From the NCBI RefSeq assembly GCF_016592615.1, contig NZ_AP013043.1, positions 1,410,001-1,442,000 on the forward strand: a stretch of DNA of 32,000 nt, in the 5' to 3' direction. Positions within the stretch are counted from its first letter, which is position 1; each line of letters starts with the position of its first letter. Shown here in pieces: positions 5,193 through 22,952 of this stretch. The notes below the pieces were generated by a model, which made no database searches, was not told the origin of the DNA, and was given only the letters and a program-made list of their open reading frames with translations. Position numbers and translations under genes: made by a program. The DNA comes from Isorropodon fossajaponicum endosymbiont JTNG4. GTDB taxonomy: Bacteria > Pseudomonadota > Gammaproteobacteria > PS1 > Pseudothioglobaceae.

Positions 5193-5267
5193 GAATCTAT
5201 TTTATAGTTTGTAAGGTAGCTTGATAATACAATATAATCAATCTCTTGCTATTTATCTAGACACATC

Positions 5268-5588: not shown

Positions 5589-5606
5589 GTTCTTAATTTG
5601 TCAGAC

Positions 5607-6413
5607 ATGAAATTAAATACAATTGCTAAGACAATAAGGATTCCATTTTTATTATTAGCCCTAGTTTGCGTATTTTTAGGGGTGAGTATCACCATAGCAA
5701 GCCCAACCACAGTATAAACCACTTGTTGTTCGCGCTTACGATGCTTGGTGCTGTATTTGCGCATATTAGTGTTAATACCCCTTAATGAATATTTCGATTT
5801 CAAGAGTGGATTGGATCTAGCAACAACAAGAACACAATTTAGTGGGGGTAGTTGGCGCTCTTCCAGAGAATCCAGAAATGGCCAATACTGTGCTTATTAT
5901 TGGCGTATTTTTTGCCTTTGAACATGGGAAAGAAGTTATTCCATTAGGTGTTGTTTTGATTGTTACATACACTGATTGGATTAATAAAAATCCCATTTTG
6001 TGTTTGATAGCACCGGGAATTGGTTTTGGTTTTCTTATGGTTGTAGGCACTCAATTTGCGCTAGAGGGGGGTAACATGCCAAAATCTTGGCTTATTGCAA
6101 TCATTCCTTTCTTTTTAGTCAACAACCTTCTTTTACTTAATCAATATCCTGATATTCATGCTGATGCTAATGTTGGTAGAAAGCATTTTCCCATTGCTTA
6201 CGGTGTAAAAACCAGTAACATAATTTATGGGTTATTTATTGCATTAACAATAATTACAATTGTGTTATTTATTGTTAGCGGCTATTTGCCAGTGCTAAGT
6301 TTGGTTGCATTGCCGCCAATACCACTTGCGTTTTTTCCCTAAAAGGTGCAGTGCAGTATGCAGAAGCCATTGGTGATTTTCCTTCTTTGTTTAGCATAAA
6401 AATAAACAGCTAA
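5607..6413 (+). pseudogene. UbiA/MenA-family prenyltransferase, degraded (nonsense plus at least 4 frameshifts, C-terminus truncated)
   Basis: The homologous peptide is spread over shifting frames. MKLNTIAKTIRIPFLLLALVCVFLGVSI...TV then TAA at 5715-5717. Then INHLLFALTMLGAVFAHISVNT, LNEYFDFKSGLDLATTRTQFSGGS, and VVGALPENPEM...NQYPDIHADANVGRKHFPIAYG. The tail LKGAVQYAEAIGDFP follows the T6 run at 6331-6336. Confidence 0.85.
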
Positions 6414-6520
6414 ATTTTTAGAGCCAAGCATAATGGCTAAAAAACCAAACCAATCATAAAGTCAACTAACGGCTTTTCTTGTAGTAAAGTAATAAACCAA
6501 AGTGAATTACCCATAGCTAG

Positions 6521-7303
6521 TTAAATTAAGTTTTCCATTGGGGATGAGGCTGAAGCGTAAGCTTTTTTCATCATTCTACCTGCAAGGAAGGATTCACGCC
6601 CTGCAATGACAGCGTGTTTCATGGCACTTGCCATTAAGACTGGATTGGTGGCATTGGCGATGGCTGAGTTCATTAGTACGCCATCGCAGCCTAGCTCCAT
6701 AGCCTTGGCAGCATCTGAGGCGCAACCAATACCAGCATCAACCAGTACGGGTACATTAGCGTGCTCTTTGATGAGTTTAATGTTTGCTGGGTTGGCAATG
6801 CCTTGGCCTGAGCCAATGAGTGAGGCAAGTGGCATAATGGCGCAACAGCCGATGCGTTCTAATTCTTTAGCAATGATTGGGTCATCACTGGTGTAAACCA
6901 TAACATCAAAACCATCATTAACTAGGGTTTGTGTAGCAGATAGGGTTTCAACAATATTGGGGTATAGGGTTTTTTCATCGCCTAATACTTCTAATTTAAC
7001 CAAATTATGCCCGCCTAAAAGTTCACGTGCTAATTGGCACGTACGTACGGCATCTTTAGCGGTGTAGCAACCTGCAGTATTAGGCAAAATGGTGTATTCA
7101 TCGAGGCTGATAACGTCTAATAAATTTGGCTCGTTTTTGTCTTGCCCGATGTTGGTTCGACGAATGGCAACGGTAATAATATCAGCCTGAGCGGCTTCAG
7201 TTGCTAGTTTTGTTTGCGTTAAATCTTTGTATTTTCCTGAGCCAACCAGCAAGCGAGAGTGATAAGTTTTTCCTGCAATTACCAGTGGTGTGTCAGTCAT
7301 CAT
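6521..7303 (-). CDS. thiG: thiazole synthase
   Basis: 260 aa. [10 protein letters not shown]...TVAIRR...LPNTAGC...KLEV...[13 protein letters not shown] are canonical ThiG motifs. Confidence 0.93.
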
Positions 7304-7323
7304 CGTAAGGATTTTTTAAGTAA

Positions 7324-7415
7324 TGGCGGAGAGTGAGGGATTTGAACCCTCGATAGGGGATAAACCCTATACACCCTTAGCAGGGGCGCGCCTTCAGCCA
7401 CTCGGCCAACTCTCC
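7324..7415 (-). tRNA. tRNA-Ser (anticodon GCU), CCA encoded
   Basis: The reverse complement reads GGAGAGTTGGCCGAGTGGCTGAAGGCGCGCCCCTGCTAAGGGTG...(long variable arm)...GAGGGTTCAAATCCCTCACTCTCCGCCA. The acceptor and T arms pair, and the anticodon loop is CT-GCT-AA. Confidence 0.9.
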
Positions 7416-7463
7416 GTGAGAGAAACATTATACGCTAAGTTGTTAAAATTTAAATGCCGAGTT

Positions 7464-7868
7464 TTAGAAACCATACTGGTATTTTAGGTTGATTTTTCGG
7501 TAGCGTTCTTTAGGGTCAAGTTTGAGTCGTATTTTGCCCCAGTCGCCTTTGAATTTGACTTTTTCCTCTAATGCTTCAAGCTTCATTTTGACATTGAGAA
7601 TGGCTTGTTCTGATTTGCTCCATTGCTCGTCATAACTAATGGGTATGCCTAGTTGGTATTCATGATAAAGCAGTTGGCTTTTGATGTCATCTGCTTGATT
7701 TTTAATATCAAAGACGTTTTCACCTGGCTCATAGCTAATTTCAAGGTTAAGTACTTTAACATCTGATGCTTTGACTGTTTGGATAATATTTGTTGTTTGC
7801 GCTAAACTGTAATTGACTAGAACACTAAAGCCAAAGGTTAAAGCGAGTAATGATTTTAGGAAAACCAA
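7464..7868 (-). CDS. hypothetical exported protein
   Basis: 134 aa with a TTG start, signal-peptide-like N-terminus (LLALTFGFSVLVNYSLAQT) and a C-terminal ...YQYGF. I recognise no family. Confidence 0.45.
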   Translation of the reverse strand: MVFLKSLLALTFGFSVLVNYSLAQTTNIIQTVKASDVKVLNLEISYEPGENVFDIKNQADDIKSQLLYHEYQLGIPISYDEQWSKSEQAILNVKMKLEALEEKVKFKGDWGKIRLKLDPKERYRKINLKYQYGF

Positions 7869-8077
7869 TGGTAAATTCCTAATGTATTAACGCAAACAAA
7901 AACCGTATTAAGCAACACTAGAGAATTATCATTATTTTTAGCACCTTGAACAATCCAACTAATGGCCGATGCCATAAAAAAAAAATAGCCAAATTTAGAC
8001 CATTCAAAGTTAAGTGCTACTAATAAGCCACCCGTAATGCCAGTAACCGTGCCAAACCAGCCCCAAGCGTTATTCAT
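7856..8077 (-). CDS. 73-aa three-TM membrane protein, PnuC-repeat/SemiSWEET-like
   Basis: Three hydrophobic helices. The last helix, LLNTVFVCVNTLGIYHWF, resembles the PnuC ...N.YGWYNW motif. The gene is tightly packed, overlapping both neighbours. Confidence 0.4.
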   Translation of the reverse strand: MNNAWGWFGTVTGITGGLLVALNFEWSKFGYFFFMASAISWIVQGAKNNDNSLVLLNTVFVCVNTLGIYHWFS

Positions 8078-8483
8078 GAATTTCGAAATCGTGCGTAACT
8101 TGGGCGGTTTTCCCTAGCATGATGGCAGCAGAGCAATGTTTATCTGCAGATAAACTGATTGCTTTGGCTACTTTTTTGTCATTTAAGTTGTGCCCCTTAA
8201 TAACAAAGTGAATATGAATCTCAGTAAATACTTTTGGATGCTCATCTGCACGTTTAGCGGTAATTTCTGCGTAGCAATCTTGCACTTCTTCACGCATTTT
8301 TTTTAAAGTTGAAACAACATCAACGGTGGTGCAACCACCCATACCAAGTAGTAGCATTTCCATGGGGCGAATGCCTAAATTTTTGCCACCCAGCCCTTCA
8401 GGGCCGTCCATAACCACAGCGTGACCACTGGCTGATTCGCCGACCATCATCATGTTATCAATCCATTTAATGGTTGTTTTCAT
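8070..8483 (-). CDS. OsmC/Ohr-family protein
   Basis: 137 aa. GIRPMEMLLLGMGGCTTVDVVSTLKKMR and a second Cys in ADKHCSAA are typical of OsmC-like peroxiredoxins. Confidence 0.75.
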   Translation of the reverse strand: MKTTIKWIDNMMMVGESASGHAVVMDGPEGLGGKNLGIRPMEMLLLGMGGCTTVDVVSTLKKMREEVQDCYAEITAKRADEHPKVFTEIHIHFVIKGHNLNDKKVAKAISLSADKHCSAAIMLGKTAQVTHDFEIHE

Positions 8484-9277
8484 GCAAAAATCTCTCGTAA
8501 TGCTTGCCCTGGGTTGGGCTGGCGCATAAAGGCTTCACCCACCAAATAGCTGTGAATATTATTTAATTTCATAAGTGCTACGTTTTCAGCGTTTAAAATG
8601 CCACTTTCAGTGATGACCAGAGTATCCCCCTTGATTTCTTTTAATAAGTCTATTGTCGTTTGTAAAGAGACTTCAAACGTGCGCAGATTGCGATTGTTAA
8701 TACCTATCATTGGCAGGTTAAGTTTGAGTGTGCGTTTAAGTTCTTTTAAGTTGTGCACTTCAATTAATACATCCATACTTAGGGAGATTGCTAATGATGA
8801 AAACTCATTCATTTGCGTGTCAGTTAAACAAGCAGTGATGAGTAAAATACAGTCTGAACCCATTACGCGTGCTTCATAAACTTGGTAAGCATCAATAATA
8901 AATTCTTTGCGTAAAACGGGTAGTGACACGGTTGCTCTTGCGTCAATTAAGTATTGATTATCACCTTGGAAAAAATCTTTATCAGTAAGGATGGATAAGC
9001 AAGTAGCACCCCCTAGCTCATAACTTTTGGCGATTTCAACCGGGTTAAAACCTTTGCGTAAAACACCTTTTGAGGGGGAGGCTTTTTTAATCTCAGCAAT
9101 CACAGCATTTTGCTTGGCATCTACTTTGGTTTTAAGGGCTTGGTAAAAACCACGTGTTTTTGATGCGTTTTTTGATTGCTCAACAACCTCTGCCAAAGGC
9201 ATGGTTTTTATACATTGCGCAATTTCTTGTTGCTTTCTAGCAATAATTTTTTTTAAAATATCAGGGGTATTTGTCAT
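8480..9277 (-). CDS. trpC: indole-3-glycerol phosphate synthase
   Basis: ILKKIIARKQQEI...IAEIKKASPSKG...LSILTD..FFQG...LPVLRKEFI...NNRNLRTFEV...ESGI. I chose the start at Met 9277 (MTNTPDIL). The 36-codon upstream extension of the ORF looks non-homologous. Confidence 0.9.
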   Translation of the reverse strand: MTNTPDILKKIIARKQQEIAQCIKTMPLAEVVEQSKNASKTRGFYQALKTKVDAKQNAVIAEIKKASPSKGVLRKGFNPVEIAKSYELGGATCLSILTDKDFFQGDNQYLIDARATVSLPVLRKEFIIDAYQVYEARVMGSDCILLITACLTDTQMNEFSSLAISLSMDVLIEVHNLKELKRTLKLNLPMIGINNRNLRTFEVSLQTTIDLLKEIKGDTLVITESGILNAENVALMKLNNIHSYLVGEAFMRQPNPGQALREIFA

Positions 9278-9345
9278 GATTAAGTATTTTAAATGAATTG
9301 TATAACTTATAATTAAACTTTGAATTTTTAAGCAAGACTTAAGCC

Positions 9346-10179
9346 ATGAAATTACTAGGTTTTGAAGTAGGTATTGATCAGCCATTTTTTTTAATAGCAG
9401 GTCCCTGCGTTATTGAATCTGAAGCTTTGGCAATGGAAACAGCGACTTATTTGGCAAAAGTCACCAGTGATTTAGGCATCAACTTTATTTATAAGTCATC
9501 CTATGATAAGGCAAATCGAACCAGTGCCAATAGTTTTAGAGGTTTGGGGTTGGAGCAAGGTCTAAGAATTTTGCAAAAAGTTAAAGATGAAGTTAGTGTG
9601 CCTGTTTTAACCGATGTTCATGAAGACACACCACTTGATGAAGTGGCAAGTGTGGTTGATATGATGCAAACACCTGCTTTTTTGGTGCGTCAAACTAATT
9701 TTATTCAAAATGTTTGTAAACAGGGCTTGCCTGTTAATATCAAAAAAGGCCAATTTCAAGCCCCTTGGGATATGAACAATGTGATTGAAAAGGCTCGTGC
9801 CACAGGCAATCAACAAATTACTGTGTGTGATCGTGGCACTTCGTTTGGCTATAACACTTTGGTTTCTGATATGCGTGGTTTGGCAAGTATGCGTAGTACA
9901 AATTGCCCCGTGGTGTTTGATGCTACGCATTCAGTACAACAGCCTGGTGGACAAGGCACAACCTCAGGTGGTCAGCGAGAAATGGTGCCAGTTCTGGCAA
10001 GAGCGGCCGTTGCTGTTGGTATTAGTGGTATTTTTATGGAAACCCACCCAGATCCTGGGAATGCCAAGAGCGACGGCCCTAATTCTATGCCGATTGATAA
10101 AATGGACGAACTGCTTAAAACCTTGCAAGAATTAGACAATATAACTAAGAAAAATGGCTTTTTAGAAGATAATTTGTAA
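9346..10179 (+). CDS. kdsA: 2-dehydro-3-deoxyphosphooctonate aldolase (KDO8P synthase)
   Basis: 277 aa. IAGPCVIES...[18 protein letters not shown]...TDVHE...[10 protein letters not shown]...KKGQF...[12 protein letters not shown] are canonical KdsA motifs. Confidence 0.93.
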
Positions 10180-10193
10180 AAACATTTGTCTGT

Positions 10194-10599
10194 TTATGTG
10201 GCTAATCTTAAGGCGCGAAAAAATCTTTTGCGTTGTTGTTGGTCTAATGATAGCGCCGTTTCTTTAATAAAGTTTTTTATCAATTTATCCTTTTGCCGTT
10301 TTAATTGCGCTAGTTGTTGGCTTTTTTCCTCATATAAACTTGGTTCGAACACAGGCGCTAATAATAGATTAAAAATATCTGAATATAAGTGCCTGGTTTT
10401 CTTATGATTGGTTATTTCTTGTTGTTGAAATAGTTGTAATTTTTCTTTTAATTGTTGTTGTGCATTGGGTAAATACGCCAAGCTGTTTGAGAATTTTATA
10501 TGTAATGGCTTTTTATGATGACCATGCCAATGTGAAAGCCGATTAGTAAAATATTTAACAGTAGTGAAATGGTTAAAATAATTTTAATTTTTTTACTCA
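10194..10599 (-). pseudogene. Spy/CpxP-like periplasmic protein, frameshifted (third gene of the ECF sigma module)
   Basis: The signal anchor MSKKIKIILTISLLLNILLIGFH runs from ATG 10599 and hits TAA after 34 codons. The body continues in another frame: ...SHWHGHHKKPLHIKFSNSLAYLPNAQQQL...LSLDQQQRKRF, with an LTxxQ-like motif. The family call is tentative. Confidence 0.5.
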
Positions 10600-10877
10600 T
10601 AAAAAGCACCTTGTTGATAATCAGAAAATAAATAAGCGTCTTGGTCTGCTATATCGTTAGTTGAGCCCCAGCCAATAACAATTCCTAGGATTAAAATAAA
10701 TATCAGTATTATTTTTTTCGGTAGTATTAATAGACTTAACGCCATGACTTCTGAAGGCATGTAGGCGTTTGATTGAGCTTTTCTTTTTTTAATAATATTT
10801 TGAATGGCATAAGCAGAGGGTGCTTGAACCTTTAGCTTGTTAAGTTGTAATTGGAGTTCTTTATCGTTATTAAACAT
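10593..10877 (-). CDS. putative anti-sigma factor (single-pass membrane protein)
   Basis: 94 aa with one central TM segment (IILIFILILGIVIGWG). It starts 9 nt after the sigma-factor stop. The assignment rests on position and topology only. Confidence 0.45.
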   Translation of the reverse strand: MFNNDKELQLQLNKLKVQAPSAYAIQNIIKKRKAQSNAYMPSEVMALSLLILPKKIILIFILILGIVIGWGSTNDIADQDAYLFSDYQQGAFYE

Positions 10878-10885
10878 AATTTTTA

Positions 10886-11425
10886 TTATAGATTAAGTTT
10901 TTGCTTGAGTTGTGCCTTGCCACGCATGAGTAATGATTGCAAGGCCTTAAGTCGGATGTTCATAATTTGAGCAGCTTGTTTGTTGCTCATGTTTTCATAA
11001 AAGCATAAAACAATTGCTAAACGCTGTCGCTTAGGCAATGAAATAATGGCTTGTTTAAGATTAAATTGCGCTTATTCTTGTTCTAAATTTTCTTCCAAAT
11101 CGGACGGGTCTGCGACATGGTCAATATGTTCAATTAATTGTGTTTTAATTTTTTTCTTATAATCTAGGCACAAATTAGCAATCACTCTATAAAACCAAGT
11201 GGTAAAAAGACTTTTTTCAGATTGATAACTATTAGGATTGTTCCAAAGTTTTAAAAAGGCTTCTTGGACAATATCTTGAGCATCATTTTGATTGAACAAC
11301 ATGCGATAAGACATAGCATAAAAACGCTGATGATGTCTTTGAACCAAAATATCAAATACCTGATGATGGTGTTTTTGAATCAAAATCATCAAGCATTCGT
11401 CATTTTTCTTACTAATAACGCTCAT
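10886..11425 (-). pseudogene. ECF (sigma-70 family) RNA polymerase sigma factor with in-frame TAA between regions 2 and 4
   Basis: Region 2 (DAQDIVQEAFLKLW...FTTWFYRVIANLCLDYKKK) ends at TAA 11072-11074. The same frame continues directly with region 4 (LPKRQRLAIVLCFYENMSNKQAAQIMNIRLKALQSLLMRGKAQLK) to the stop at 10886-10888. The total is 540 nt, or 180 codons, in one frame. Confidence 0.85.
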
Positions 11426-11459
11426 TAAATTATTAGAGAGTTACTTTTAGTAAGCGTAA

Positions 11460-11721
11460 TTAAAACATCCTCCTCATTGGTTGATGTTGATTTCGTCTAT
11501 AATTCCTCATTTCATTTTGTGTTAATACGCCATCACCATTCGTATCCATTTGAGAGAATTTTGCTTTTTTAAGTGTGATAAATTCATCCAAGGTAATTTT
11601 TTTTATCAGCATTATTCACAGGGTCTTGATCACATGTTTTGCCATTATCGCTAAAAGCATAACTACTTGTTGTTAACAATAAAGTTGTTGTTAGGGTTAA
11701 TATTAATAGTTGTTTTTTCAT
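11460..11721 (-). pseudogene. small secreted EF-hand calcium-binding protein, frameshifted in a homopolymer run
   Basis: Signal peptide MKKQLLILTLTTTLLLTTSSYA...ADKKNYLG then stop. The next frame gives ITLDEFITLKKAKFSQMDTNGDGVLTQNEM, where DxNxDGxLxxxE is the EF-hand loop. The shift sits in the 8-nt T run at 11597-11604 (plus strand). The 262-nt length is not a multiple of 3. Confidence 0.65.
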
Positions 11722-11822
11722 GGTTATTTCCTTATATTTTAGTTAGGTCACATAAAATATCTTACTGACACTAATTGATACGAGATATTAACTTAAAGTC
11801 TTCGGTTGTAAGCCTCAAATAT

Positions 11823-12379
11823 TTACTTTTTACCAAGCATTCTATGCAAGGTGCTATCTTTATCGATAAAATAGTGTTTTAACGCACCGATGATATGCAA
11901 TGTAATAGAAAATATCATTATTTTTCCACCCAATCCGTGCAAGGTATTACCCAAACTTGCAAGAGATTTACTAAGTGGTATCACTTTTCCTGGATTCCAT
12001 TCATCCGGATTGATTGCTAGCAACTCCAAGCCAAAGATAGATAAGCCATGTCCACCTGCACCTGACATTAACATACCGGAGATTGGCATCATCACTGTGC
12101 CAATAATTAACATCCAGTGAATGGTTTTTGCGCCTATTTGTTCAATTCTTTTATATTGACTGACAGGTACAGGCCAGCCATTTTTAATGCGCCAAATTAC
12201 CCATATTAAAATAACGTTAAAGAGTAGAATGCCGATTGATTTGTGTATTGGGTATAGAAAAAAACTTTGTTTTCCTCCATGTATATACCCACTACAATTA
12301 ATGCAATAAAAACAATGGCAACGAGCCAATGTAGTGAGATGGTAATTAAAGAGAGTTTTTGCTTGTTGTCTTTTGTCAT
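11823..12379 (-). pseudogene. cytochrome b561-family membrane protein, frameshifted
   Basis: The N-terminus MTKDNKQKLSLITISLHWLVAIVFIALIVVGIYM is in one frame. The rest (IHKSIGILLFNVILIWVIWR...KTIHWMLIIGTVMMPISG...LHIIGALKHYFIDKD) is in another. The junction is at the A7 run 12258-12264. Confidence 0.7.
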
Positions 12380-12532
12380 TTTGCATGCCTTCAAATCAGT
12401 TAAAAAATAATATCCAACTTACGTAGTACGAGCCATATATTAAAAACCTTCGTTTTTTCGTAAATTTTCTTTATAAATGGTATTATTTGAAGATTGTACG
12501 ATATTTTTTTAAACACCTAGACAAAGCAATCC

Positions 12533-14342
<1,810 letters not shown>

Positions 14343-14519
14343 CTAAAAATAAAAAGTATAAACACCCAATATTCTTAAGAATTAAACCAAAAGCAACCAA
14401 TTAAAGCAACTGTGGTATGTTTTGATTTAAGGCAGATAAGAAGTTTTATGTAATGGTCTTTCTGTGATTATTGTTTTTACGTTGTATAATTACAACTTGA
14501 TTTAACAAAAGATGAACAA

Positions 14520-15263
14520 ATGGTAAGAATAGCAGTATCGGGTAGTAATGGCAGAATGGGTCAGGCGATTATTGAAGTGATTGAGCAATCAGATGAGGTT
14601 GAGTTAGGCGTTAAGATTGATCAGGATAATAATTTAATTGATTATTTGGATAAATTTGATGTGCTTATTGACTTTACTTGTCCAGTAGCCACACTTGGCT
14701 ATTTAGCAATTTGTGCTAAGGCAGGCAAGAAAATGGTTATTGGTACGACAGGTTTTAATGATAATGAACTAAATCAATTAACCGCCCTTGCACGGAATAC
14801 ACCTATTATGTTTGCGCCTAATATGAGCGTGGGTGTTAATTTATCTTTAAAGCTTTTGGAAATGGCGGCAAAAGTAGTGGGAGAAGAAAGCGATATTGAA
14901 ATTATTGAGACGCATCACCGCTTTAAGGTGGATGCCCCTAGTGGCACTGCATTAAAGATGGGTGAGGTGATTGCTGATACCTTGGGCAGAGACTTAAAAA
15001 CGTGCGCCGTTTATGGACGAGAAGGCATTGAGCAGGTAAGAGATAAAAATACCATTGGATTTTCCACAATTCGTGGTGGTGATGTGGTGGGTGAACATAC
15101 GGTGAGTTTTTTTATGCAAGGCGAGCGTGTAGAAATTACCCATAAGGCTTCATCAAGAATGACCTTTGCACTTGGGGCGCTCCGTGCGGCAATTTGGCTG
15201 GATAAAGCACCCTCTAACAAAGGCTGTATTTACTCAATGAAAGACGTATTGGAGATTACTTAA
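14520..15263 (+). CDS. dapB: 4-hydroxy-tetrahydrodipicolinate reductase
   Basis: 247 aa. [15 protein letters not shown]...VIGTTGF...APNMSVGVN...[18 protein letters not shown]...[11 protein letters not shown] are canonical DapB motifs. Confidence 0.92.
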
Positions 15264-15269
15264 AAAAAA

Positions 15270-15883
15270 ATGCGACTACATGCACATAAAGTGCCACTCA
15301 TTTTATTGGCAATTTATACAGTTTTGCTTACTATATTAGCAATTAGTCCTTATGATAGAGCCACTTGGTGAGCGGAAAATATTCCAGTTTTGACTGTTGT
15401 GGGTGTTTTAGTGCTTACTTATTCTAGCTTCAAATTTTGCTTATGTGTTAATGGGTTTATTTTTGTGTTATCACACTATTGGTGGGCACTTTACTTTTGA
15501 ACTAGTGCCATTTGATTGGAGTAATCATCTATTATCAACATTGGGTTTTGATTTTGTTATCCCTGAAGGGCGAAATAATTTTGACCGCTTAGGGCATTTT
15601 TTGGTTGGTATTTTCTCCTATGCTGTGGTTGAGATTAGTGTGCGTAAAAAGTGGGTGAGCAACAACTTTATGGCTTGGCCATTGGGTGTATTTGCCCTAG
15701 GTTTTTGGGCGGCAAGTTATGAAATAATTGAAATGGTTTATGTCATTACTGAAGGTGGAGAGTCGGGAGCAACTTTTTTAGGCTCTCAAGGTGATATTTG
15801 GGATACTCAAAAAGATATGTTGCTTTGATATATTAGGCGCTTGTATATTTGGGTTATTAGCGCTGTTTAATCAGCGTAATTAG
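15270..15883 (+). pseudogene. DUF2238 (YjdF-like) inner-membrane protein, nonsense plus frameshifts
   Basis: MRLHAHKVPLILLAIYTVLLTILAISPYDRATW, then TGA at 15369-15371, then AENIPVLTVVGVLVLTY in frame. A frameshift precedes VLMGLFLCYHTIGGHFTFELVPFDW (ORF 15445-15828). A further shift near 15822 precedes the tail [19 protein letters not shown]. Confidence 0.75.
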
Positions 15884-15905
15884 CAGGAGAGGCATTAAAA
15901 AAATT

Positions 15906-16205
15906 ATGTTATATGCTATTATTTCACAAGATGTTGAGGATTCGCTAGAGAAAAGAGTGTTAGTACGTCTAGAACATATTAAGCGATTAGAGGCTTTAAA
16001 AAAACAAGGGCGCTTAATTTTGGCAGGTCCTCATCCTGCCATTGATACTAATGATCCAGGTAGCGCCGGCTTTACAGGCTCGTTAGTGGTGGCAGAATTT
16101 GATTCTTTAGAGGCTGCAAAAGTTTGGGCAGATGCAGATCCTTATATCGAGTCTGGTGCCTATGCTAGCATTATTGTTAAACCATTTAAGAAGGTATTGC
16201 CATGA
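15906..16205 (+). CDS. YciI-family protein
   Basis: 99 aa, with MLYAIISQD...[22 protein letters not shown]...ADPY typical of YciI-like proteins. Its stop overlaps the next start (ATGA). Confidence 0.75.
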
Positions 16206-16744
16206 GTTTACTACTACGTCCTTTATTTGAAAAAATCAGTTCAACTTATACGTATCTTTTGGCAGATATGCAAACTTTGGACGCTATTATCATTGATGCG
16301 GTAGATGAAACTAAGCAACGTGATATTGGCTTGATTGAAGAATTGGGTTTGAATCTTAAATATATTCTTGAAACACATGTGCATGCTGATCACATTACCA
16401 GTTCTTGTCCATTAAAACAGCACTTTACACAGGCTAAAATTGTATACTAGGTTCAGCCAATGAAGTTACTTGTGTGGATATTTTACTCAATGATGGCGAT
16501 ACTTTATCATTTGGCGCTTATATTTTGAGTGCTATGACAACCCCTGGGCATACAGATGGCTGCATGTCTTATGCGGTGGATAATCAAATCTTTACAGACG
16601 ATACCTTATTGATTGGAAGTTGTAGATAAGCAAGAGTTTGCTCGTCGAGTTAATGCAATGGAGCTAGATTTGCCTAAAAAAATCCATGTTGCAGTACCTG
16701 CTAATCAAGTTTGTGGTGCAAAAATTATGATTAAGACACCATGA
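16202..16744 (+). pseudogene. MBL-fold hydrolase, ETHE1/persulfide-dioxygenase-like, degraded
   Basis: FEKISSTYTYLLAD...ILETHVHADHITS runs to TAG 16448-16450. A shifted frame gives GSANEVTCVDILLNDGDTLSFG...TTPGHTDGCMSY...DTLLIGSC to TAA 16627-16629. A third frame gives the C-terminal KQEFARRVNAMELDLPKKIHVAVPANQVCG. About 70 aa that this family normally has between these parts is absent. Confidence 0.8.
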
Positions 16745-16989
16745 AGGGCTATTCACTAGACCCACATCCAAGTATTAGCGTTGTTAAAGAAGTATTTGCT
16801 GTGGTCAGAATTCCAAGAATTAAGCGTGAGCGTGTACCGTCCAATAATGTTGAAGTGGTTGAAGATTTAGACATTGCTATGGAGAAATCAGACCCTGGTA
16901 ATCATCTGTATGCTGCAAAAGTACTAGGTCCGTCTAGGTCATCTGAAGGCATGACTTTGTATTATATTTTAGAAATGTATAACGCTTAA
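16741..16989 (+). CDS. hypothetical 82-aa protein (no family recognised)
   Basis: The ATG overlaps the preceding TGA (ATGA), and its TAA overlaps the next ATG (TAATG). Translational-coupling geometry is the only support. Confidence 0.35.
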   Translation: MKGYSLDPHPSISVVKEVFAVVRIPRIKRERVPSNNVEVVEDLDIAMEKSDPGNHLYAAKVLGPSRSSEGMTLYYILEMYNA

Positions 16990-18242
16990 TGAAGTGGTTT
17001 AGTTTACTGTTGATTTTATTAGCACCACTTGTTCATAGTGGACAAAGCACCGAGTTTGAATTAATATCAGGCGATACAATCAGTGCTGATGTTTATTCAG
17101 CAGACACACAAGTGTTATTTTTATGTTTGCCTTCTGAACGTGGTTTTAGCAAGGGCTATGTACCCACAGTACAACAATTAGCATTTTTTGATGTTGATAA
17201 TGTTGATGTTTGGGCGCTTGACCTTCATAGTAGTTACATGGTACCAAAACATCGCAGCAGCATTAATCGGTTTAAGGTTAAAGATGTGCTTGAAATTATA
17301 TCAACTGCCGAACGTAAAGGCTTTGAAAAAATATTTTTTCTAACCTCGGGTAGAGGCGCACAATTGGCGCTTAAAATTGCACATCAGTGGCAATTAGAAA
17401 ATCCTAAATCTAGTTTGATTAAAGGGCACATCTTTCATTCGCCACATTTGATTCATGGCAAGCTAGAGTTAGGCACTAAAGCTAAATATGTTGATATTTC
17501 AACGGTTAGCAACTTGCCTATTTATTTGTTATTACCACAATTTAGTACTAAATATTTTAGAGCAGATGAAATCTCTGAGCAATTAAAAATAGGGGGCAGT
17601 TCCGTATTTACACATCGATTAAAAGGAGCGCATGGTTGGTTTCATATGCACGATGAGAAAGACTTAAGACCCATGGATTTAAAGGCCAAAGAAAGTTTGA
17701 GTAATACTTATGTACTTGCTATGAATTTGATGAGCACTGTTGATATTCCCAAAGTAGTAACGCTAAAAAAACAAACTAAGAATAGCCAAAGCCTTTCGTT
17801 TGGCAAGCCTGTACTGAAGCTTTATAAAGGTAAATCAAACATAAGTCTTAAGTTCAAGTCAATTGATGGGCAATTATTAAATATTAAAGACTTTGATAAT
17901 CAAGTGATCTTAATTAATTTTTGGGCGAATTGGTGCAAACCCTGTGTGAAAGAAATTCCATCATTGGTTAGGTTGCAAACTATACTGAAAGATAAGCCAT
18001 TTAAGATTCTTACGGTGAATGTCGGCGAGTCAAAACAAGAAATAGACGCGTCCATGAAAAAAGTAAAGTTTGATTTACCAATTATGCTTGACCACTCTGG
18101 ACAGGCGGTGAAAGATTGGGATGTGTATGCTTATCCATCTAATTTTTTTCTGGATAAAAATGGCAAAATTAGATACACTTACCGCGGCGCACTAGAGTGG
18201 GATGCTAAGCCAATTGTTAAAACCATTCAGTCATTATTTTAG
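16989..18242 (+). CDS. exported two-domain protein: N-terminal alpha/beta-hydrolase-like domain fused to a TlpA/ResA-type thioredoxin domain
   Basis: Signal peptide MKWFSLLLILLAPLVHSG. The C-terminal 140 aa carry ILINFWANWCKPCVKEIPSL...YAYPSNFFLDKNGKI, a TlpA-like CxxC redoxin signature. The N-terminal roughly 270 aa has no GxSxG nucleophile (LTSGRGAQ). Confidence 0.7.
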   Translation: MKWFSLLLILLAPLVHSGQSTEFELISGDTISADVYSADTQVLFLCLPSERGFSKGYVPTVQQLAFFDVDNVDVWALDLHSSYMVPKHRSSINRFKVKDVLEIISTAERKGFEKIFFLTSGRGAQLALKIAHQWQLENPKSSLIKGHIFHSPHLIHGKLELGTKAKYVDISTVSNLPIYLLLPQFSTKYFRADEISEQLKIGGSSVFTHRLKGAHGWFHMHDEKDLRPMDLKAKESLSNTYVLAMNLMSTVDIPKVVTLKKQTKNSQSLSFGKPVLKLYKGKSNISLKFKSIDGQLLNIKDFDNQVILINFWANWCKPCVKEIPSLVRLQTILKDKPFKILTVNVGESKQEIDASMKKVKFDLPIMLDHSGQAVKDWDVYAYPSNFFLDKNGKIRYTYRGALEWDAKPIVKTIQSLF

Positions 18243-19429
18243 TGCCTTATGAGGTTGTTATTATTGGTGCAGGTGCAGCAGGGCTTATGTGTGCAATTGA
18301 GGCGGGTAAGCGGCATAAAAAAGTTTTAGTTATTGATAAAGCCAATAAAGCAGGTAAAAAAATTCTTATCTCAGGGGGTGGTCGTTGTAATTTTACTAAT
18401 CTTGCCATTGAGCCAGAGGCTTATTTATCACACAACCCACATTTTCATAAATCTGCACTGGCGCGTTATACGCAGTGGGATTTTATAAAATTGATGAATA
18501 AGCACAATCTAAGTTGGCATGAAAAAACACAAGGCCAGTTGTTTTGCGATCAAAAATCAGCTGCAATCTTACAAATGTTATTGAATGAGTGTATCCAAGT
18601 AGGAGTTGATTTTGTTTTTAACGTTTTAGTAACAAGTCTAGAGTTCGATACTAAATACAACCTTAAAACCAATCAAGGTGATTATCAAGCAAATACTTTG
18701 GTCATTGCAACTGGTGGCGCTTCTATTCCTAAAATAGGTGCTACTGATTTTGGCTTGCAAGTTGCTAAGCAATTTAATATTAACACGACTGATTTTACCC
18801 CAGCACTGGTGCCATTGACTTTCCATGTTAATGATATTAATCGTTACTTCAAAGGTTTATCAGGTTTGTCGTTAGAGGTGGTGGTTGGATGTAACGGACA
18901 ATCCTTTCGAGATTTTATTTTAATAACGCACAAAGGTATTAGTGGTCCTGCTATTTTACAAATCTCTTTATTTTGGCATTCAAGTGACAAGCTAAGCATT
19001 AATTTATTGCCAGACATTGACGCAACTGATTGGTTAATTGCACAACAACAAACGCGAGGTAAAGCAACATTAAAAACCGTTTTATCAGTACACTTTCCTA
19101 AACGACTTGCGCAGCGACTAGCAAATACATTATTATTAACCCCACTGGAAAACACACCACTGGGTCAAATTAATAAAAGTGAGCTTTCTCTTTTTGGGCG
19201 TGCGCTTAATAATTGGCAACTTTATCCAAATGCCGCTGAGGGCTTACGTGTTGCTGAGGTGTGCTTAGGTGGGGTTGATACCAATGAGTTATCCTCCAAA
19301 ACCATGCAAGTTAAAAAGCAACCTAGTCTATATTTTATTGGTGAAACTGTTGATGTGACAGGTCAATTAGGCGGTTATAATTTCCAATGGGCTTGGTCAT
19401 CTGGCTGGGTGGCTGGGCAGATGGTTTAG
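18242..19429 (+). CDS. NAD(P)/FAD-dependent oxidoreductase, HI0933/YhiN (BaiN-like) family
   Basis: GTG start overlapping the preceding TAG. VVIIGAGAAGLMCA...ISGGGRCNFTN...GPAILQ...GGVDTNELSSKTM...LYFIGETVDVTGQLGGYNFQWAWSSG are typical of this family. Confidence 0.85.
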   Translation: MPYEVVIIGAGAAGLMCAIEAGKRHKKVLVIDKANKAGKKILISGGGRCNFTNLAIEPEAYLSHNPHFHKSALARYTQWDFIKLMNKHNLSWHEKTQGQLFCDQKSAAILQMLLNECIQVGVDFVFNVLVTSLEFDTKYNLKTNQGDYQANTLVIATGGASIPKIGATDFGLQVAKQFNINTTDFTPALVPLTFHVNDINRYFKGLSGLSLEVVVGCNGQSFRDFILITHKGISGPAILQISLFWHSSDKLSINLLPDIDATDWLIAQQQTRGKATLKTVLSVHFPKRLAQRLANTLLLTPLENTPLGQINKSELSLFGRALNNWQLYPNAAEGLRVAEVCLGGVDTNELSSKTMQVKKQPSLYFIGETVDVTGQLGGYNFQWAWSSGWVAGQMV

Positions 19430-19464
19430 TTTAAGAAGGTAATAACTTAAAGACAAGGGATGGC

Positions 19465-19983
19465 ATGTTTGCATCTAGTGATAAAATTAAAGGCTATGAG
19501 GTACTTGTGTTCAATGAGCGCGAGGTAAGAGCAGCAACAGGCATTGTATTTTTGTTTGATTTTTTTAAATCCTAAATATGCCCCATCCATGGTCATGGGT
19601 CGTTGGATGGTTAATAACCAAACACCAGAATACGTTGGTGCGCCACAAAAAAGATGGGCATGGGCTTTGTTTTGGCACTTATTATGTTTTATTTAGTGGT
19701 GCTTAATAATGTTCGAGGGCCGGTTAATATTCTTGTTTGTGCTTCGTGTTTGGGGTTATTATTCTTTGAAGTAGTGTTTGGTATTTATGTGGGTTGTAAA
19801 ATTTATAACCTATGTCACAAGCAAGAGGCTCAATATTGTCCAGGAGGACCGTGTGATTTAAGCAAAGCACGGATATCAATTCAAAGCTTAAATTTAGCAC
19901 AAAAGGCAATATTTGCTTTATCAGTACTGGCGCTTCTTTACTTAATATTTGGTGATATTGTTGAGTTTTTTATTTTTAATTAA
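19465..19983 (+). pseudogene. DUF4395-family membrane protein, frameshifts plus internal deletion
   Basis: KGYEVLVFNEREVRAATGIVFLFDFF, then a stop. The +1 frame gives NPKYAPSMVMGRWMVNNQTPEYVGAPQKRWAWA. The original frame resumes with GFVLALIM...CLGLLFFEVVFGIYVGCKIYNL...AQYCPGGPCD. The first shift is at the T7 run 19560-19566, and roughly one TM helix seems to be missing there. Confidence 0.7.
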
Positions 19984-19999
19984 TCATAAGGAGGCCCCT

Positions 20000-20317
20000 A
20001 TGAAAAACTTAAAGACATTAGCAAGTTCGTTGGTTTTAATACTTGGCAGCAGTTTACTGTCATTTTCTTTTTTTGCTGTTAATAACAATACTGTTAAAGA
20101 AGAAAACACAACAACAAAATCAGTTGAAGAGTGCCGGCACCAAGCTGGGCAATTGCTATTGGTCATGAACAAAAATGGAGGTTGCACAATGGCTGCCCTA
20201 CTAAACAAGAGCCTCAGCAAGAAAAGAAAAACAGTTCTAAATAATGGCGTACTGGTATTTAGCAATAGCAATTATCGCGTAAGTTATTGCAACCAGTGCG
20301 CTCAAAGCTTCAACTGA
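20000..20317 (+). CDS. hypothetical exported protein (C-terminus uncertain)
   Basis: Strong RBS AAGGAGG 5 nt upstream of the ATG and a signal-peptide-like N-terminus (LASSLVLILGSSLLSFSFFA). The last 25 codons or so run out of frame across the SMR remnant, so the native end is unclear. Confidence 0.4.
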   Translation: MKNLKTLASSLVLILGSSLLSFSFFAVNNNTVKEENTTTKSVEECRHQAGQLLLVMNKNGGCTMAALLNKSLSKKRKTVLNNGVLVFSNSNYRVSYCNQCAQSFN

Positions 20318-20340
20318 GTTTACAAAACTACTACCAAGTT
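20244..20340 (+). pseudogene. SMR-family (EmrE/SugE-like) small multidrug transporter, N-terminal remnant
   Basis: MAYWYLAIAIIA-TAA-VIATSALKASTEFTKLLPS. The stop at 20280-20282 replaces the conserved membrane Glu of the ...AEVI(G/A)T... motif. Homology ends abruptly at the IS3-type terminal repeat starting at 20341. Confidence 0.7.
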
Positions 20341-20467
20341 TGCAATGCTCTAACCTACTTGGACACATTTCAAGCCGCTTTTTTCAATTCAGCCATCTTT
20401 TGAGCAGGTGTTAAATACCCAATCGCTGAATGAATCCTTTTGTAATTATACAAGTAGATATAACTCA
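20341..20467 (-). mobile_element. IS3-family element remnant (right end only: terminal IR plus last 35 codons or so of the transposase)
   Basis: The minus strand reads ...GLQGLSYIYLYNYKRIHSAIGYLTPAQKMAELKKAA then stop, a typical IS3 OrfB C-terminus. It is followed by the terminal sequence whose plus-strand form is TGCAATGCTCTAACCTACTTGGACACA. The upstream boundary is approximate. Confidence 0.65.
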
Positions 20468-21074
20468 GACCCTGTAAACCAGATTGTGTAAACCCTCATA
20501 TTTTATAATCCCCGAAAAGGAGAAAAAACATGAGTAACACAATACCAAGAAACAAAAAAAAGCAACTTAACAACACAGGCATCAACCAGAAAAAGCTCCG
20601 TGCTTTTGCTGATGAACTTGCCAAAGACATCCACACCCAAGATGATTTAGCAGATCTAGCTGCTTCACTGGTTAAAATGACCATTGAAGCAGCATTAGGT
20701 GCTGAGATGGAACATCATCTTGGTTATCCAAAATATGGGCAAAATAGCAGCGAGCTTAATACAGACAGCAATGCTCGTAATGGCTATTACCCTAAAACCG
20801 TCAAAGGCAATCATGGTGAAGTTGAACTTGCTATCCCAAGAGACCGCAGAGGTAGCTTTGAACCTTTAATTATTGAAAAAGGTCAAACGCCGATTGGGTG
20901 CTTTTGATAGTCAGATATTAAGCCTATATGCCAAAGGCATAGGTACCCGTGACATCGTCTCAACCTTTAAAGAAATGTATGATGTAGACATCTCAGCAAC
21001 ATTGGTATCCAATGTCACTCAGCAGGCGGTTATCACCCAAGCGATTGAATGGCGTAATCGTCCACTTGATGAAA
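20468..21074 (+). mobile_element. IS256-family element, 5' part only; transposase frameshifted and truncated
   Basis: ORF 20530-20907 reads ...IEAALGAEMEHHLGYPKY...NARNGYYPKTVKGNHGEVELAIPRDRRGSFEPLIIEKGQT. The next frame reads RLGAFDSQILSLYAKGIGTRDIVSTFKEMYDVDIS...WRNRPLDEM. This is the IS256 transposase N-terminal third with a 1-nt frameshift near 20889, cut off at 21074 by the next IS. The left boundary is a guess. Confidence 0.75.
20789..20952 (+). repeat. 164-bp segment of the IS256-like transposase gene, copy 1 of an exact direct repeat
   Basis: A base-by-base comparison with 31670-31833 shows 164/164 identity, including the frameshifted GGTCAAACGCCGATTGGG stretch. Confidence 0.9.
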
Positions 21075-21141
21075 TGTAATACCCCAAAAAACCACCATTC
21101 TAAAGTAGAAAATTCTATAATAAAAAATAAGGAGTTTTCAC

Positions 21142-21411
21142 ATGAAAAAATCAAGATATACAGAGTCATAAATAGTCAACATACTCAAACAAAACCAATC
21201 AGGCATATCTGTGGCTGATCTATGCCGTGAATACGCAATGTCTCAAGCCACATTTTACAAATGGAGATCTAAATACGGTGATACAGATTTTGTCTCTATG
21301 GTTAAACGCTTAAAAGAGCTAGAATCAGAAAATGCTCAATTCAAGCGTATGTATGCTGAGAGTGAGTTGAAACTGCAAATTACAAAGGATGCCTTAGCAA
21401 AAAAGTTCTAA
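21142..21411 (+). pseudogene. IS3-family transposase OrfA (HTH), nonsense at codon 10
   Basis: MKKSRYTES-TAA(21169-21171)-IVNILKQNQSGISVADLCREYAMSQATFYKWRSKYG...VKRLKELESENAQFKRMYAE, a typical IS407-type OrfA with a leucine zipper. Confidence 0.8.
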
Positions 21412-21438
21412 AGCCATCCCAGTGGCGTGAGGATGGCT
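21399..21438 (+). promoter_or_regulatory. -1 programmed ribosomal frameshift signal of the IS3 element (slippery A_AAA_AAG plus hairpin)
   Basis: The heptamer A AAA AAG at 21399-21405 is in the orfA zero frame. After a 6-nt spacer comes a perfect 8-bp stem, AGCCATCC (21412-21419) with GGATGGCT (21431-21438), and an 11-nt loop. Confidence 0.7.
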
Positions 21439-22212
21439 TTAAACATCAATGAACAAAATAAGAACACAAGTATCAAACTTATTTACGAAGTTTGTAGCAT
21501 TAGTAAAAGCACTTATTATTATCAACCAAAACTCAGTGATGACAATGCTTTAATTGCCGATTGTCTACTGCGCTTAACCGCAACGCACAAGCGTTGGGGT
21601 TTTAAACTGTGCTATTTATATCTACGTAATGTTAAAGACTACAAATTTAACCATAAACGAGTGTATCGCATTTACCAAGAACTGGAGCTCAATCTAAGAA
21701 TCAAGCCAAGAAGAAGAATCAAAAGAGATAAACCCGAAGCACTGAGTGTGCCAACAACTATTAACCAAACTTGGTCAATGGATTTTATGTCAGACTCACT
21801 CACTGATGGCAGGCACATTAGAACTTTTAATGTTGTCGATGATTACAATCGGGAAGGCTTGAATATTGATGTGGACTTGTCCATGCCAGCAAGACGAGTT
21901 ATTCAATCATTAGAACGTTTGATTCAGTGGCGTGGCAAGCCCAAGGCTATCAGATGTGATAATGGTCCTGAATACATTAGCCAAGCATTAAGAGACTGGG
22001 TACAAGCCTTAGGTATTGAGTTAATGTACATCCAACCAGGTAAGCCAACTCAAAATGCCTACATTGAGAGATTTAACCGTACAGTAAGACAAGAGTGTTT
22101 AGATCTGCATTTGTTTGATTCTGTTGAGCAAGCACAAGATGCAACCACACAGTGGTTATGGGTTTATAATAACGAACGACCGCACTTTGCCCTAGGTGGC
22201 GTGATAAGATGA
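21427..22212 (+). pseudogene. IS3-family transposase OrfB (DDE integrase core), frame relation to orfA broken
   Basis: STYYYQP...HKRWGFKL...NQTWSMDFM...DDYNREG...IRCDNGPEYIS...IQPGKPTQNAYIERFNRT...YNNERPH is the DDE/rve core. It lies in the same frame as orfA rather than -1, and the -1 frame from the slippery site hits TGA at 21450-21452. Confidence 0.8.
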
Positions 22213-22384
22213 CTAGCCTCTACTTTAGAGTTGTATGGAAAATTGGGATATTAAACACTTGCCGCACCTGATTTTCAAGTTGAAATGGAACTTGTTGTAA
22301 GACTTCCAGATTAATCCTCATTAGGTAATTTGCCAGTTCTTTAAATTCAAGCGTTATAACTCTTAAGAAAAGAAAAATCGTAAA

Positions 22385-22952
22385 ATGAAGCAAATCAACA
22401 TCCAATATTACAAAACAAAAATTGGCGAACTAATTCTTGGTTCTTATGATGACAAACTTTGTATTCTTGATTTTAGATACCGACAAATGAGAACAACTAT
22501 TGATAATAGAATTAAAAATGGATTAAAAGCTTAATTTATAGAACGGAATGACAAAATTTTAACAAAAACTAAAAAACAACTTAACAGTTATCTTGCAGGT
22601 AATAGAAATTTTTTTTGATATTCCTTTATTGTTAGTAGGTACTAATTTTCAAAAAAAATGTTTGGCGCGCTAATAAAAATACCATATGGTATTACCTCAA
22701 CTTACTTACAACTAGCGAAAAAATATTAATAATGAAAAAGCTGTTCGGGTAGTTGCTAGCGCAAACGGTGCAAACTCTATTAGCGTTATCATTCCTTGTC
22801 ATCGTATTATTGGCAGTAATGGAGAACTGGTTGGTTATGGCGGTGAATTATCAATTAAAAAACGCTTGTTAAATTTAGAAAAAAAAATAACAATTCAAGA
22901 CGAGTCATTTCCAAATGACATGCAAATAGATTGTGTTTTCTACTCTATTTAA
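22385..22952 (+). pseudogene. ogt: methylated-DNA-protein-cysteine methyltransferase, multiply frameshifted
   Basis: The N-terminus MKQINIQYYKTKIGELILGS... is stopped by TAA 22532-22534. Later frames give LNSYLAGNRNFF, DIPLLLVGTNFQKK, ALIKIPYGITSTYLQLAKK and AVRVVASANGANSISVIIPCHRIIGSNGELVGYGGELSIKKRLLNLE. The PCHR active-site Cys codon is at 22797-22799. Shifts occur at the T8 run 22609-22616 and the A8 run 22651-22658, among others. Confidence 0.85.

Follow-up and report, generated by a model that had tools for sequence, protein, structure and literature searches.

The subject of this analysis is a 32,000-nucleotide (nt) stretch of contig NZ_AP013043.1, referred to below as the window, in which broken and intact genes lie interleaved. 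As listed in Table 1, 13 of the 40 protein genes in the window are broken, and all 13 fall between positions 5607 and 22952. Intact coding sequence accounts for 43% of this central 17.3 kb, pseudogene remnants for 40%, and remnants of insertion sequences (IS) for 10%. The initial annotation of this DNA had named at least 11 non-IS genes as broken. All 11 were recovered where it had placed them, by ortholog or profile identification and lesion mapping, and the total rises to 13 with a LigE-type DNA ligase remnant and a small secreted-protein gene, both absent from that annotation. Most of its gene labels were also sustained, with the exception that the Spy/CpxP label corresponds to a sub-threshold match and the 'ETHE1-like' label is inseparable from GloB. 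Its description of thiG, trpC, kdsA, dapB and both flanks as intact agrees with the full-length single-frame or profile matches obtained for them.

Open reading frames (ORFs) of at least 70 amino acids (aa) from 32 related loci were translated and then searched against the window. The intact orthologs or frame-stitched translations were identified by Pfam and NCBIfam, and lesions were mapped by DNA-level alignment. Eleven of the broken genes were mapped against intact orthologs. Intact orthologs of the UbiA-family gene and of ogt were found in none of the fetched relative loci; these 2 genes were mapped against family profiles, and their frame junctions are approximate.

The lineage was placed using DapB, the only marker protein, together with the local DNA. 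DapB is 94% identical to that of 'Candidatus (Ca.) Ruthturnera sp. Tsphm01' (1.52-Mb complete genome; locus L001), 89% to 'Ca. Ruthia sp. Plio_17' (1.23 Mb; L002), 83% to two 'Ca. Vesicomyosocius' genomes (approximately 1.03 Mb; L003 and L004), 81% to another Ruthturnera metagenome-assembled genome (L005), and approximately 70% to free-living SUP05/Thioglobus relatives and Bathymodiolus symbionts. Exact-protein look-ups for DapB and KdsA gave no match, and the best DapB match in a metagenome scan was a contig at 73% identity. The DNA of the window, with a GC content of approximately 38%, is collinear with Tsphm01 and Plio_17 at 88-93% identity (about 90%). The genomes closest to the window all belong to endosymbionts of vesicomyid clams (Ca. 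Ruthturnera, Ruthia and Vesicomyosocius) and measure 1.0-1.5 Mb. Because of these DapB identities and the collinear DNA at about 90% identity to the closest genome, the source can be placed, on sequence grounds, as a distinct lineage inside the chemosynthetic vesicomyid clam symbiont clade (Ca. Ruthia/Ruthturnera, 'clade II'), and its relatedness to clam symbionts points to a host-restricted bacterium.

Relatedness to these genomes is mosaic along the window. The block from kdsA to the EF-hand gene (8900-11700) is 94-96% identical to Plio_17 and 90-93% to Tsphm01, the dapB region (14500-14900) is 93% identical to Tsphm01 and 85% to Plio_17, and the synonymous divergence (dS) of kdsA is 0.15 against Plio_17 and 0.39 against Tsphm01. 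This pattern of identity suggests that recombination may have taken place between Ruthia lineages.

Table 1. Genes, gene remnants and insertion sequences of the decayed region, with window positions
Feature	Position	Strand	State
UbiA-family (MenA-like) prenyltransferase pseudogene	5607-6342	+	at least 3 frameshifts and a premature stop
thiG	6521-7303	-	intact; full-length single-frame ortholog match
tRNA-Ser	7324-7415	-	intact
134-aa and 73-aa conserved proteins	within intact block 6521-10179		single-frame ortholog matches
OsmC	8070-8483	-	intact
trpC	8480-9277/9385	-	intact
kdsA	9346-10179	+	intact
Spy/CpxP-like periplasmic protein pseudogene	10194-10609	-	22-bp deletion, codon 27 (against intact 147-aa Plio_17 ortholog)
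94-aa membrane protein	10593-10877	-	intact; 95% nt identity to Plio_17 and lesion-free against it
ECF sigma factor pseudogene	10886-11425	-	single CAA>TAA, codon 118, 11072-11074
EF-hand protein pseudogene	11460-11721	-	75-bp internal deletion, +1 in A8 run (11604); intact Plio_17 ortholog 111 aa
Cytochrome b561 pseudogene	11823-12379	-	single -1 in T7 run at about 12264; intact L005 ortholog 185 aa
recQ helicase pseudogene	12533-14342	+	eight events against intact 709-aa RecQ of Tsphm01
LigE-type ATP-dependent DNA ligase remnant	14324-14392	+	last 23 codons alone survive
dapB	14520-15263	+	intact
DUF2238 membrane protein pseudogene	15270-15900	+	two nonsense codons, -8, +1
YciI-family protein	15906-16205	+	intact
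MBL-fold hydrolase pseudogene (GloB / persulfide-dioxygenase-like)	16202-16744	+	+2 and -170
82-aa protein, 417-aa TlpA/ResA-like thiol-disulfide oxidoreductase, 395-aa FAD flavoprotein (TIGR00275)	16741-19429	+	intact
DUF4395 pseudogene	19465-19983	+	deletion of about 26 codons and two frameshifts
Small secreted-protein gene, about 80 aa	20000-20244	+	frameshifted at 20134
SMR efflux pump remnant	20244-20342	+	GAA>TAA, codon 13 (20280-20282); intact Plio_17 ortholog 108 aa
IS3-family transposase tail remnant	20370-20453	-	
IS256/Mutator transposase fragments	20530-21079	+	profile positions 11-158 of 379 only
IS3-family copy	21142-22212	+	orfA nonsense change, codon 10 (21169-21171); orfA/orfB frame relation disrupted
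ogt (O6-methylguanine-DNA methyltransferase) pseudogene	22385-22952	+	in-frame stops and 3 frameshifts

Of the three DNA-maintenance genes inactivated within 10 kb, recQ, the LigE-type ligase gene and ogt, the first carries the following events: +1 at 12769, a 6-base-pair (bp) duplication at 12785, GAG>TAG at 13269-13271, +1 at 13344, a 309-bp deletion at 13523, -3, +2 at 14094, and loss of the 3' end. The intact RecQ of Tsphm01, whose gene is 87% identical in nucleotides to the window copy, has the DEAD, Helicase_C, RecQ_Zn_bind, RQC and HRDC domains all present, and about 103 codons spanning the junction of the Zn-binding and RQC domains are missing from the window gene. Its tail is joined to the ligase remnant by a deletion of approximately 789 bp with CATTT/CCTTT microhomology. 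The Tsphm01 ortholog of the ligase has 273 aa and scores 335 bits against NCBIfam PRK09125. In ogt, stops occur at 22532-22534 and as a triple stop at 22727-22735, and frameshifts lie near 22611-22618 (a T8 run), 22661-22676 and 22737, breaking the frame at least 5 times; the stitched translation matches PF01035 (E=4e-26) and PF02870 (E=4e-7), with the PCHR motif legible ('IIPCHRIIG').

Upstream of recQ, 5 genes are broken. The UbiA-family gene changes frame near 5714, 5775-5788 and 5845-5852 and has an in-frame stop at 5715-5717. Its stitched translation matches Pfam PF01040 (E=4e-11) and positions 16-253 of the 296 in the NCBIfam MenA model (E=4e-13), so that the C-terminal 45 or so profile residues are missing. 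In the Spy/CpxP-like gene, the deletion lies between TGGCATG direct repeats and causes a frameshift with loss of the N-terminus. The label of this gene is tentative: the Pfam Metal_resist match is sub-threshold (E=0.006, 17 bits against a 29-bit cut-off), searches of NCBIfam and PDB sequences returned no match, and visual inspection gave two degenerate LxxxQ motifs; its position beside the extracytoplasmic function (ECF) sigma factor gene is suggestive of the family. The nonsense codon in the sigma factor gene splits region 2 from region 4, which are recognized as Sigma70_r2 and r4_2 in the intact Plio_17 ortholog. The 94-aa membrane protein encoded just downstream, for which a Pfam search gave no match, is presumed from gene position alone to be the anti-sigma partner of this factor, and having been orphaned by the nonsense change it may now be a functionless orphan awaiting decay.

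Downstream of dapB, the DUF2238 gene has TGG>TGA at 15369-15371 (codon 34), -8 at 15427, +1 at 15824, and TGG>TAG at 15881-15883, the -8 reducing an 8-bp tandem repeat by one copy. In the gene of the metallo-beta-lactamase (MBL) fold hydrolase, a TA duplication (+2) is found at 16443, and an out-of-frame 170-bp deletion with TGT microhomology at 16620. The ortholog is intact in Tsphm01, Plio_17 and both Vesicomyosocius genomes, and scores against GloB (E=2e-36) and against the dioxygenase portion of Blh (E=4e-33), in each case under the curated cut-off; from these profiles the MBL fold is certain, and the 'ETHE1-like' and GloB assignments are inseparable. The DUF4395 deletion joins VFLF-encoding repeats, with frameshifts at about 19562-19575 and 19657-19696. 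The adjoining gene, which encodes a roughly 80-aa secreted protein carrying the motif EC..P.WA..IGHE..W..HNGCP, is intact in free-living SUP05 relatives and independently broken in Plio_17. Finally, a stop replaces a Glu codon near the N-terminus of the small multidrug resistance (SMR) pump, and homology ceases after about 33 codons at a break in synteny.

The mapped lesions can be divided by size. The small events look slippage-like: they fall in homopolymers, duplicate TA or TGTTAT, or remove one of the copies of TTTCAAAT. Among the larger events, short junction repeats (3-13 bp) are present at 4 of the 5 mapped deletions. The 309-bp recQ deletion has imperfect 13-bp junction repeats (TGAGGTTTTGTTG and TGATGTTTTATTG), and the others have TGGCATG (22 bp), TGT (170 bp) and C(A/C)TTT (789 bp); the 75-bp EF-hand deletion is essentially without a junction repeat. 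All 6 nonsense substitutions are GC→AT changes (11072, 13269, 15369, 15881, 20280 and 21169), comprising CAA>TAA twice and GAG>TAG, TGG>TGA, TGG>TAG and GAA>TAA once each. This is consistent with AT-biased mutation pressure.

Comparison with the relatives indicates that the lesions are derived, since intact orthologs exist in sister symbionts or free-living relatives. In Tsphm01, recQ, the ligase, DUF2238 and MBL genes are intact, and the TlpA-like gene is split by a +2 indel. In Plio_17, the Spy-like, sigma, EF-hand, MBL and SMR genes are intact; recQ, the ligase, cytochrome b561, DUF2238 and the small 80-aa gene are broken, with lesions that differ from those of the window except for one DUF2238 codon. 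Five different indels have broken its cytochrome b561 gene independently, the flavoprotein gene and most of DUF4395 are deleted, and the TlpA-like gene is largely deleted. Thus the TlpA-like gene is intact in the window and broken in both of these relatives. The more distant Ruthturnera genome (L005) has lost recQ and the sigma factor gene by deletion and retains cytochrome b561 and the ligase, the latter being intact there as in Tsphm01. The Vesicomyosocius genomes have 134 bp between kdsA and dapB, compared to 4.3 kb in the window (10181-14507), and are also without UbiA and DUF2238. As a separate observation, Tsphm01 has a 389-aa ORF, NhaA-like by eye, at the site that holds the Spy-like through cytochrome b561 genes in the window; the regions of its split TlpA-like gene and NhaA-like ORF are 12643-13889 and 4778-5947 of locus L001.

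The TGG>TGA change at DUF2238 codon 34 is the sole lesion common to the window and a relative, and Plio_17 was assembled independently. It points to ancestral inactivation, recombination with the Plio_17 lineage, or a parallel G>A change. On the branches, DUF2238 has ratios of nonsynonymous to synonymous substitutions (N/S) of 7/3 in the window and 11/5 on the other broken branch, versus 10/16 for the intact copy (p=0.05). The gene is therefore evolving close to neutrally in both lineages that carry the common codon. DUF2238 probably either died in a common ancestor with Plio_17 or was exchanged with that lineage.

Several observations weigh against reading the region as decayed. About half of the small (1-2-bp) frameshifts lie in homopolymers of 6-8 nt (A8 at 11604, T7 at 12264, T8 at 22615, T7 at 19568 and G6 at 5848), which is also a signature of sequencing error, and the cytochrome b561 call depends on one such indel in a consensus sequence and is the least secure of the pseudogene calls. 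The EF-hand, recQ (at 12769), DUF4395, ogt and UbiA genes each have one homopolymer indel as well, and would still be broken by their other lesions if it were set aside. Pairwise ratios of nonsynonymous to synonymous rates (dN/dS) are 0.07-0.36 for most remnants, no higher than the 0.06-0.37 of intact neighbors. Window-branch N/S values of 12/26 for recQ and 2/8 for the MBL gene are far below neutral. Also, indels and neutral substitutions in recQ stand at roughly 1:1, an unusually high ratio that is either a real feature or the result of a few small indels being erroneous.

These homopolymer sites, and the substitution patterns of recQ and the MBL gene that still look constrained, are what would be expected if the stops and frameshifts were consensus or assembly errors, for example long-read homopolymer indels, in genes that are really intact. 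The distribution and nature of the lesions make this very improbable. If roughly 33 lesions are placed uniformly over 40 genes, 20.6±2.0 genes are expected to be hit, and 13 are observed (P≈1e-4), with zero disabling lesions in 21 kb of intact coding sequence. Frameshifts outside homopolymers were found at 13344, 14094, 15427, 16443 and 20134, and are accompanied by the 8-bp loss, the 6 nonsense changes and the deletions of 22, 75, 170, 309 and 789 bp with their largely repeat-flanked junctions. Moreover, one nonsense codon recurs in an independent assembly, and sister genomes have independently broken or lost the same genes. Assembly errors cannot account for the deletions spanning 22-789 bp, for the nonsense substitutions or for the common DUF2238 codon. 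The initial annotation had argued that assembly error alone was insufficient, citing all three stop codons, non-homopolymer frameshifts and internal deletions of tens of codons (recQ, MBL and DUF4395). The argument is upheld: TAA, TAG and TGA all occur, the deletions are present, and so are non-homopolymer frameshifts, though about half of the small ones lie in homopolymers.

The low dN/dS of the remnants could also be taken to mean that the split ORFs are functional, as separate subunits or through programmed frameshifting or transcriptional slippage at poly(A) or poly(T) runs. Rescue by polymerase slippage has been described for insect endosymbionts, and single homopolymer lesions such as the cytochrome b561 T7 run and the EF-hand A8 site are in principle open to it. 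This explanation has, in our estimation, an extremely small chance of being correct. Most of the genes have several incompatible lesions or have lost catalytic parts: about 100 codons are gone from recQ and 57 from the MBL gene, and the ligase and SMR genes are reduced to stubs. DUF2238 evolves neutrally. The initial annotation had raised conserved split ORFs in relatives as a possibility, and no such split architecture was found in close relatives, in which the orthologs are intact, differently broken or deleted, with the one DUF2238 codon in common.

As the main test of pseudogene status, dN/dS was rejected: pairwise values fail to separate remnants from intact genes, and branch counts separate DUF2238 only. 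An estimate of dN/dS for the remnants had been proposed alongside the initial annotation, and its outcome is mixed, near neutral for DUF2238 and otherwise, at 0.07-0.36 pairwise, like that of intact genes. These values are consistent with recent inactivation of most genes other than DUF2238 and, given the low N/S of recQ and the MBL gene, with very recent inactivation of these two.

At the right edge of the decayed region, collinearity with Plio_17 stops inside the SMR gene at about 20342, adjoining the IS remnants, and the interval 20342-20530 is likely a rearrangement or deletion breakpoint. Beyond it, the right flank from glmM onward does not lie next to the decayed block in any fetched relative. 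The IS3-family copy at 21142-22212 retains a canonical A AAA AAG slippery heptamer at 21399-21405, its orfB shares the frame of orfA behind a TAA, and possible terminal inverted repeats are found at 21094-21109 and 22219-22234. Because of the orfA nonsense change and the position of orfB in the orfA frame behind a TAA, this copy is probably immobile. IS-mediated inactivation was considered as a general cause of the decay and rejected, as the IS remnants coincide only with the SMR truncation and the synteny break.

The genes between the remnants are stop-free. The interleaved thiG, OsmC, trpC, kdsA, dapB, YciI, TlpA-like and FAD flavoprotein genes all give one-frame ortholog matches without stops, and the genes of the block 6521-10179 have full-length single-frame matches in both symbiont and free-living relatives, with dN/dS of 0.06-0.37. 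The longest ORF for trpC is extended by 36 codons at the N-terminus and shares 40 bp with the start of the divergent kdsA; the actual trpC start is probably at 9277, because the orthologs have 265 aa. In the left flank, kdsB, folD, purK, purE, bioH and bioF are full length with profiles matched end to end. The right flank is likewise full length, with end-to-end family profile matches for glmM, folP, ftsH, holA, proA and tyrS, and it also contains the transfer-messenger RNA (tmRNA) gene. An Rfam search for structured RNAs and riboswitches in the 'non-coding' stretches found nothing beyond tRNA-Ser and tmRNA.

In free-living relatives the layout is syntenic. It runs from bioF and a 106-aa gene through a variable slot to thiG and on to kdsA, then through a slot holding the ligase with or without variable genes to dapB and YciI, and further on to DUF4395 and the small gene. 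The variable slots are occupied by accessory genes, and the LigE-type ligase is the ancestral occupant of the gap between kdsA and dapB. The clustering of decay reflects dispensable genes interleaved with essential ones and is not a positional mutational hot spot.

It might alternatively be supposed that the decay is local, triggered by IS elements in a horizontally acquired accessory island of an otherwise ordinary and possibly free-living bacterium. The kdsA-dapB and bioF-thiG intervals do vary between relatives: locus L013 has a large insert of accessory ORFs (5.2-9.1 kb) beside the ligase, L016 has two extra small ORFs, Tsphm01 has the NhaA-like ORF, and an unrelated 440-aa gene is found in both L015 and L016. 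Free-living relatives lack the Spy-like-to-recQ block at the matching position, IS remnants and the synteny break occupy 20.3-22.2 kb, and the view extends over 32 kb. However, several of the casualties (ligE, DUF4395, the small 80-aa gene, DUF2238 and the MBL gene) belong to the ancestral syntenic gene set of free-living relatives and not to island cargo, and the SMR truncation is the only lesion associated with an IS. The close relatives, moreover, are all obligate clam symbionts with genomes of 1.0-1.5 Mb undergoing the same process. An island of this kind is therefore most unlikely to be the explanation.

Taken together, the window is best read as a case of ongoing, intermediate-stage reductive genome evolution in the vesicomyid clam symbiont clade, with a probability of roughly 0.9. 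The decayed region extends around two variable, accessory-rich intervals (bioF-thiG and kdsA-dapB) and a dispensable block downstream of dapB, and 13 of the dispensable genes there would have lost their selective value inside the host. In a first step, such genes would be inactivated by GC→AT nonsense substitutions and slippage indels of 1-8 bp, often at homopolymers or short tandem repeats. In a second step, they would be removed by RecA-independent deletions between direct repeats or microhomologies of 3-13 bp, ranging here from 22 to 789 bp, and the endpoint would be the complete loss seen in the more reduced Vesicomyosocius genomes. The essential biosynthetic and translation genes in between are free of lesions and kept by purifying selection, and the IS copies at the right edge mark the synteny break and are decaying as well. 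The data show the lesions themselves, their derived state, their independent origin in different lineages, the deletion junctions and the phylogenetic placement. That the bacterium is host-restricted, that the cause is relaxed selection with drift during bottlenecked transmission, and how the deletions arise at the molecular level are the steps that we infer. The initial annotation had reached a similar view from the loss of stress sensing, DNA repair, efflux and accessory redox functions and the retention of biosynthesis and translation. The same functional pattern was found here, and a host-restricted, reductive lineage is additionally supported by the clam-symbiont placement, the derived lesions, the Vesicomyosocius deletions and the independent lesions of sister genomes.

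Pseudogene-rich genomes of several Mb are found in recently host-restricted bacteria such as Sodalis glossinidius, the Sitophilus symbiont SOPE and Mycobacterium leprae, some of them with massive IS expansions. Like the window, these genomes have a high pseudogene density, mixed lesions, IS elements and intact core genes between. Unlike them, the relatives of the window have already reached 1.0-1.5 Mb and its IS copies are few and degraded, which suggests that its lineage stands at a later, intermediate stage. Much closer is the resemblance to the clade II clam symbionts, Ca. Ruthia magnifica and relatives (PMC3202245; bioRxiv 10.1101/2020.02.01.930370), which belong to the same clade by sequence and show the same two-step pattern, independent lineage-specific losses, casualties among DNA repair genes, and deletion of the homologous regions in clade I (Vesicomyosocius). 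In the model of Kuwahara 2011, point mutations and small indels come first and are followed by deletions through RecA-independent illegitimate recombination or replication slippage (PMC3202245). For the same group, Perez 2020 reported genome sizes between 1.02 and 1.59 Mb, pseudogenes particular to single lineages and a reduction that is still under way (bioRxiv 10.1101/2020.02.01.930370). The published clade II cases center on recA and mutY, in contrast to the recQ, LigE-type ligase and ogt genes and the envelope-stress, efflux and redox genes affected here; 'recQ' and 'ogt' are absent from the main text of Kuwahara 2011 (PMC3202245), and 'recQ' is not mentioned in Perez 2020 (bioRxiv 10.1101/2020.02.01.930370). 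A looser analogy is offered by the luminous deep-sea anglerfish symbionts, which are likewise marine with genome features common in host-dependent bacteria, and which differ in belonging to another bacterial group and in being apparently acquired from the environment (PMC6773444).

The loss of three DNA-maintenance genes, of which at least recQ seems to have been lost very recently, raises the idea that the lineage is now entering an accelerated, deletion-prone phase, in which deletion at microhomologies is speeded up by the inactivation of recQ along with that of the ligase and ogt. At present this idea must be called unlikely. In Escherichia coli, RecQ suppresses illegitimate recombination. 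If the idea were true, recQ loss would raise the rate of microhomology-flanked deletions such as those of 22-789 bp, explaining the high indel ratio in the youngest pseudogenes, and the recQ-intact lineage (Tsphm01) and the recQ-broken lineages (the window and Plio_17) would constitute a natural experiment on the tempo of genome shrinkage.

Reductive evolution of this kind is already documented for the clade, and the current view of symbiont genome shrinkage is unchanged by the window. In practical terms, the ORF fragments are to be annotated as pseudogenes, and the region supplies material for measurement of the deletion spectrum. Five related symbiont genomes show the same genes in every state from intact through freshly broken and heavily eroded to gone, with the deletion junctions legible. 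With the window, recQ, a periplasmic-type DNA ligase and ogt join the DNA-maintenance genes that are being lost in clam symbionts.

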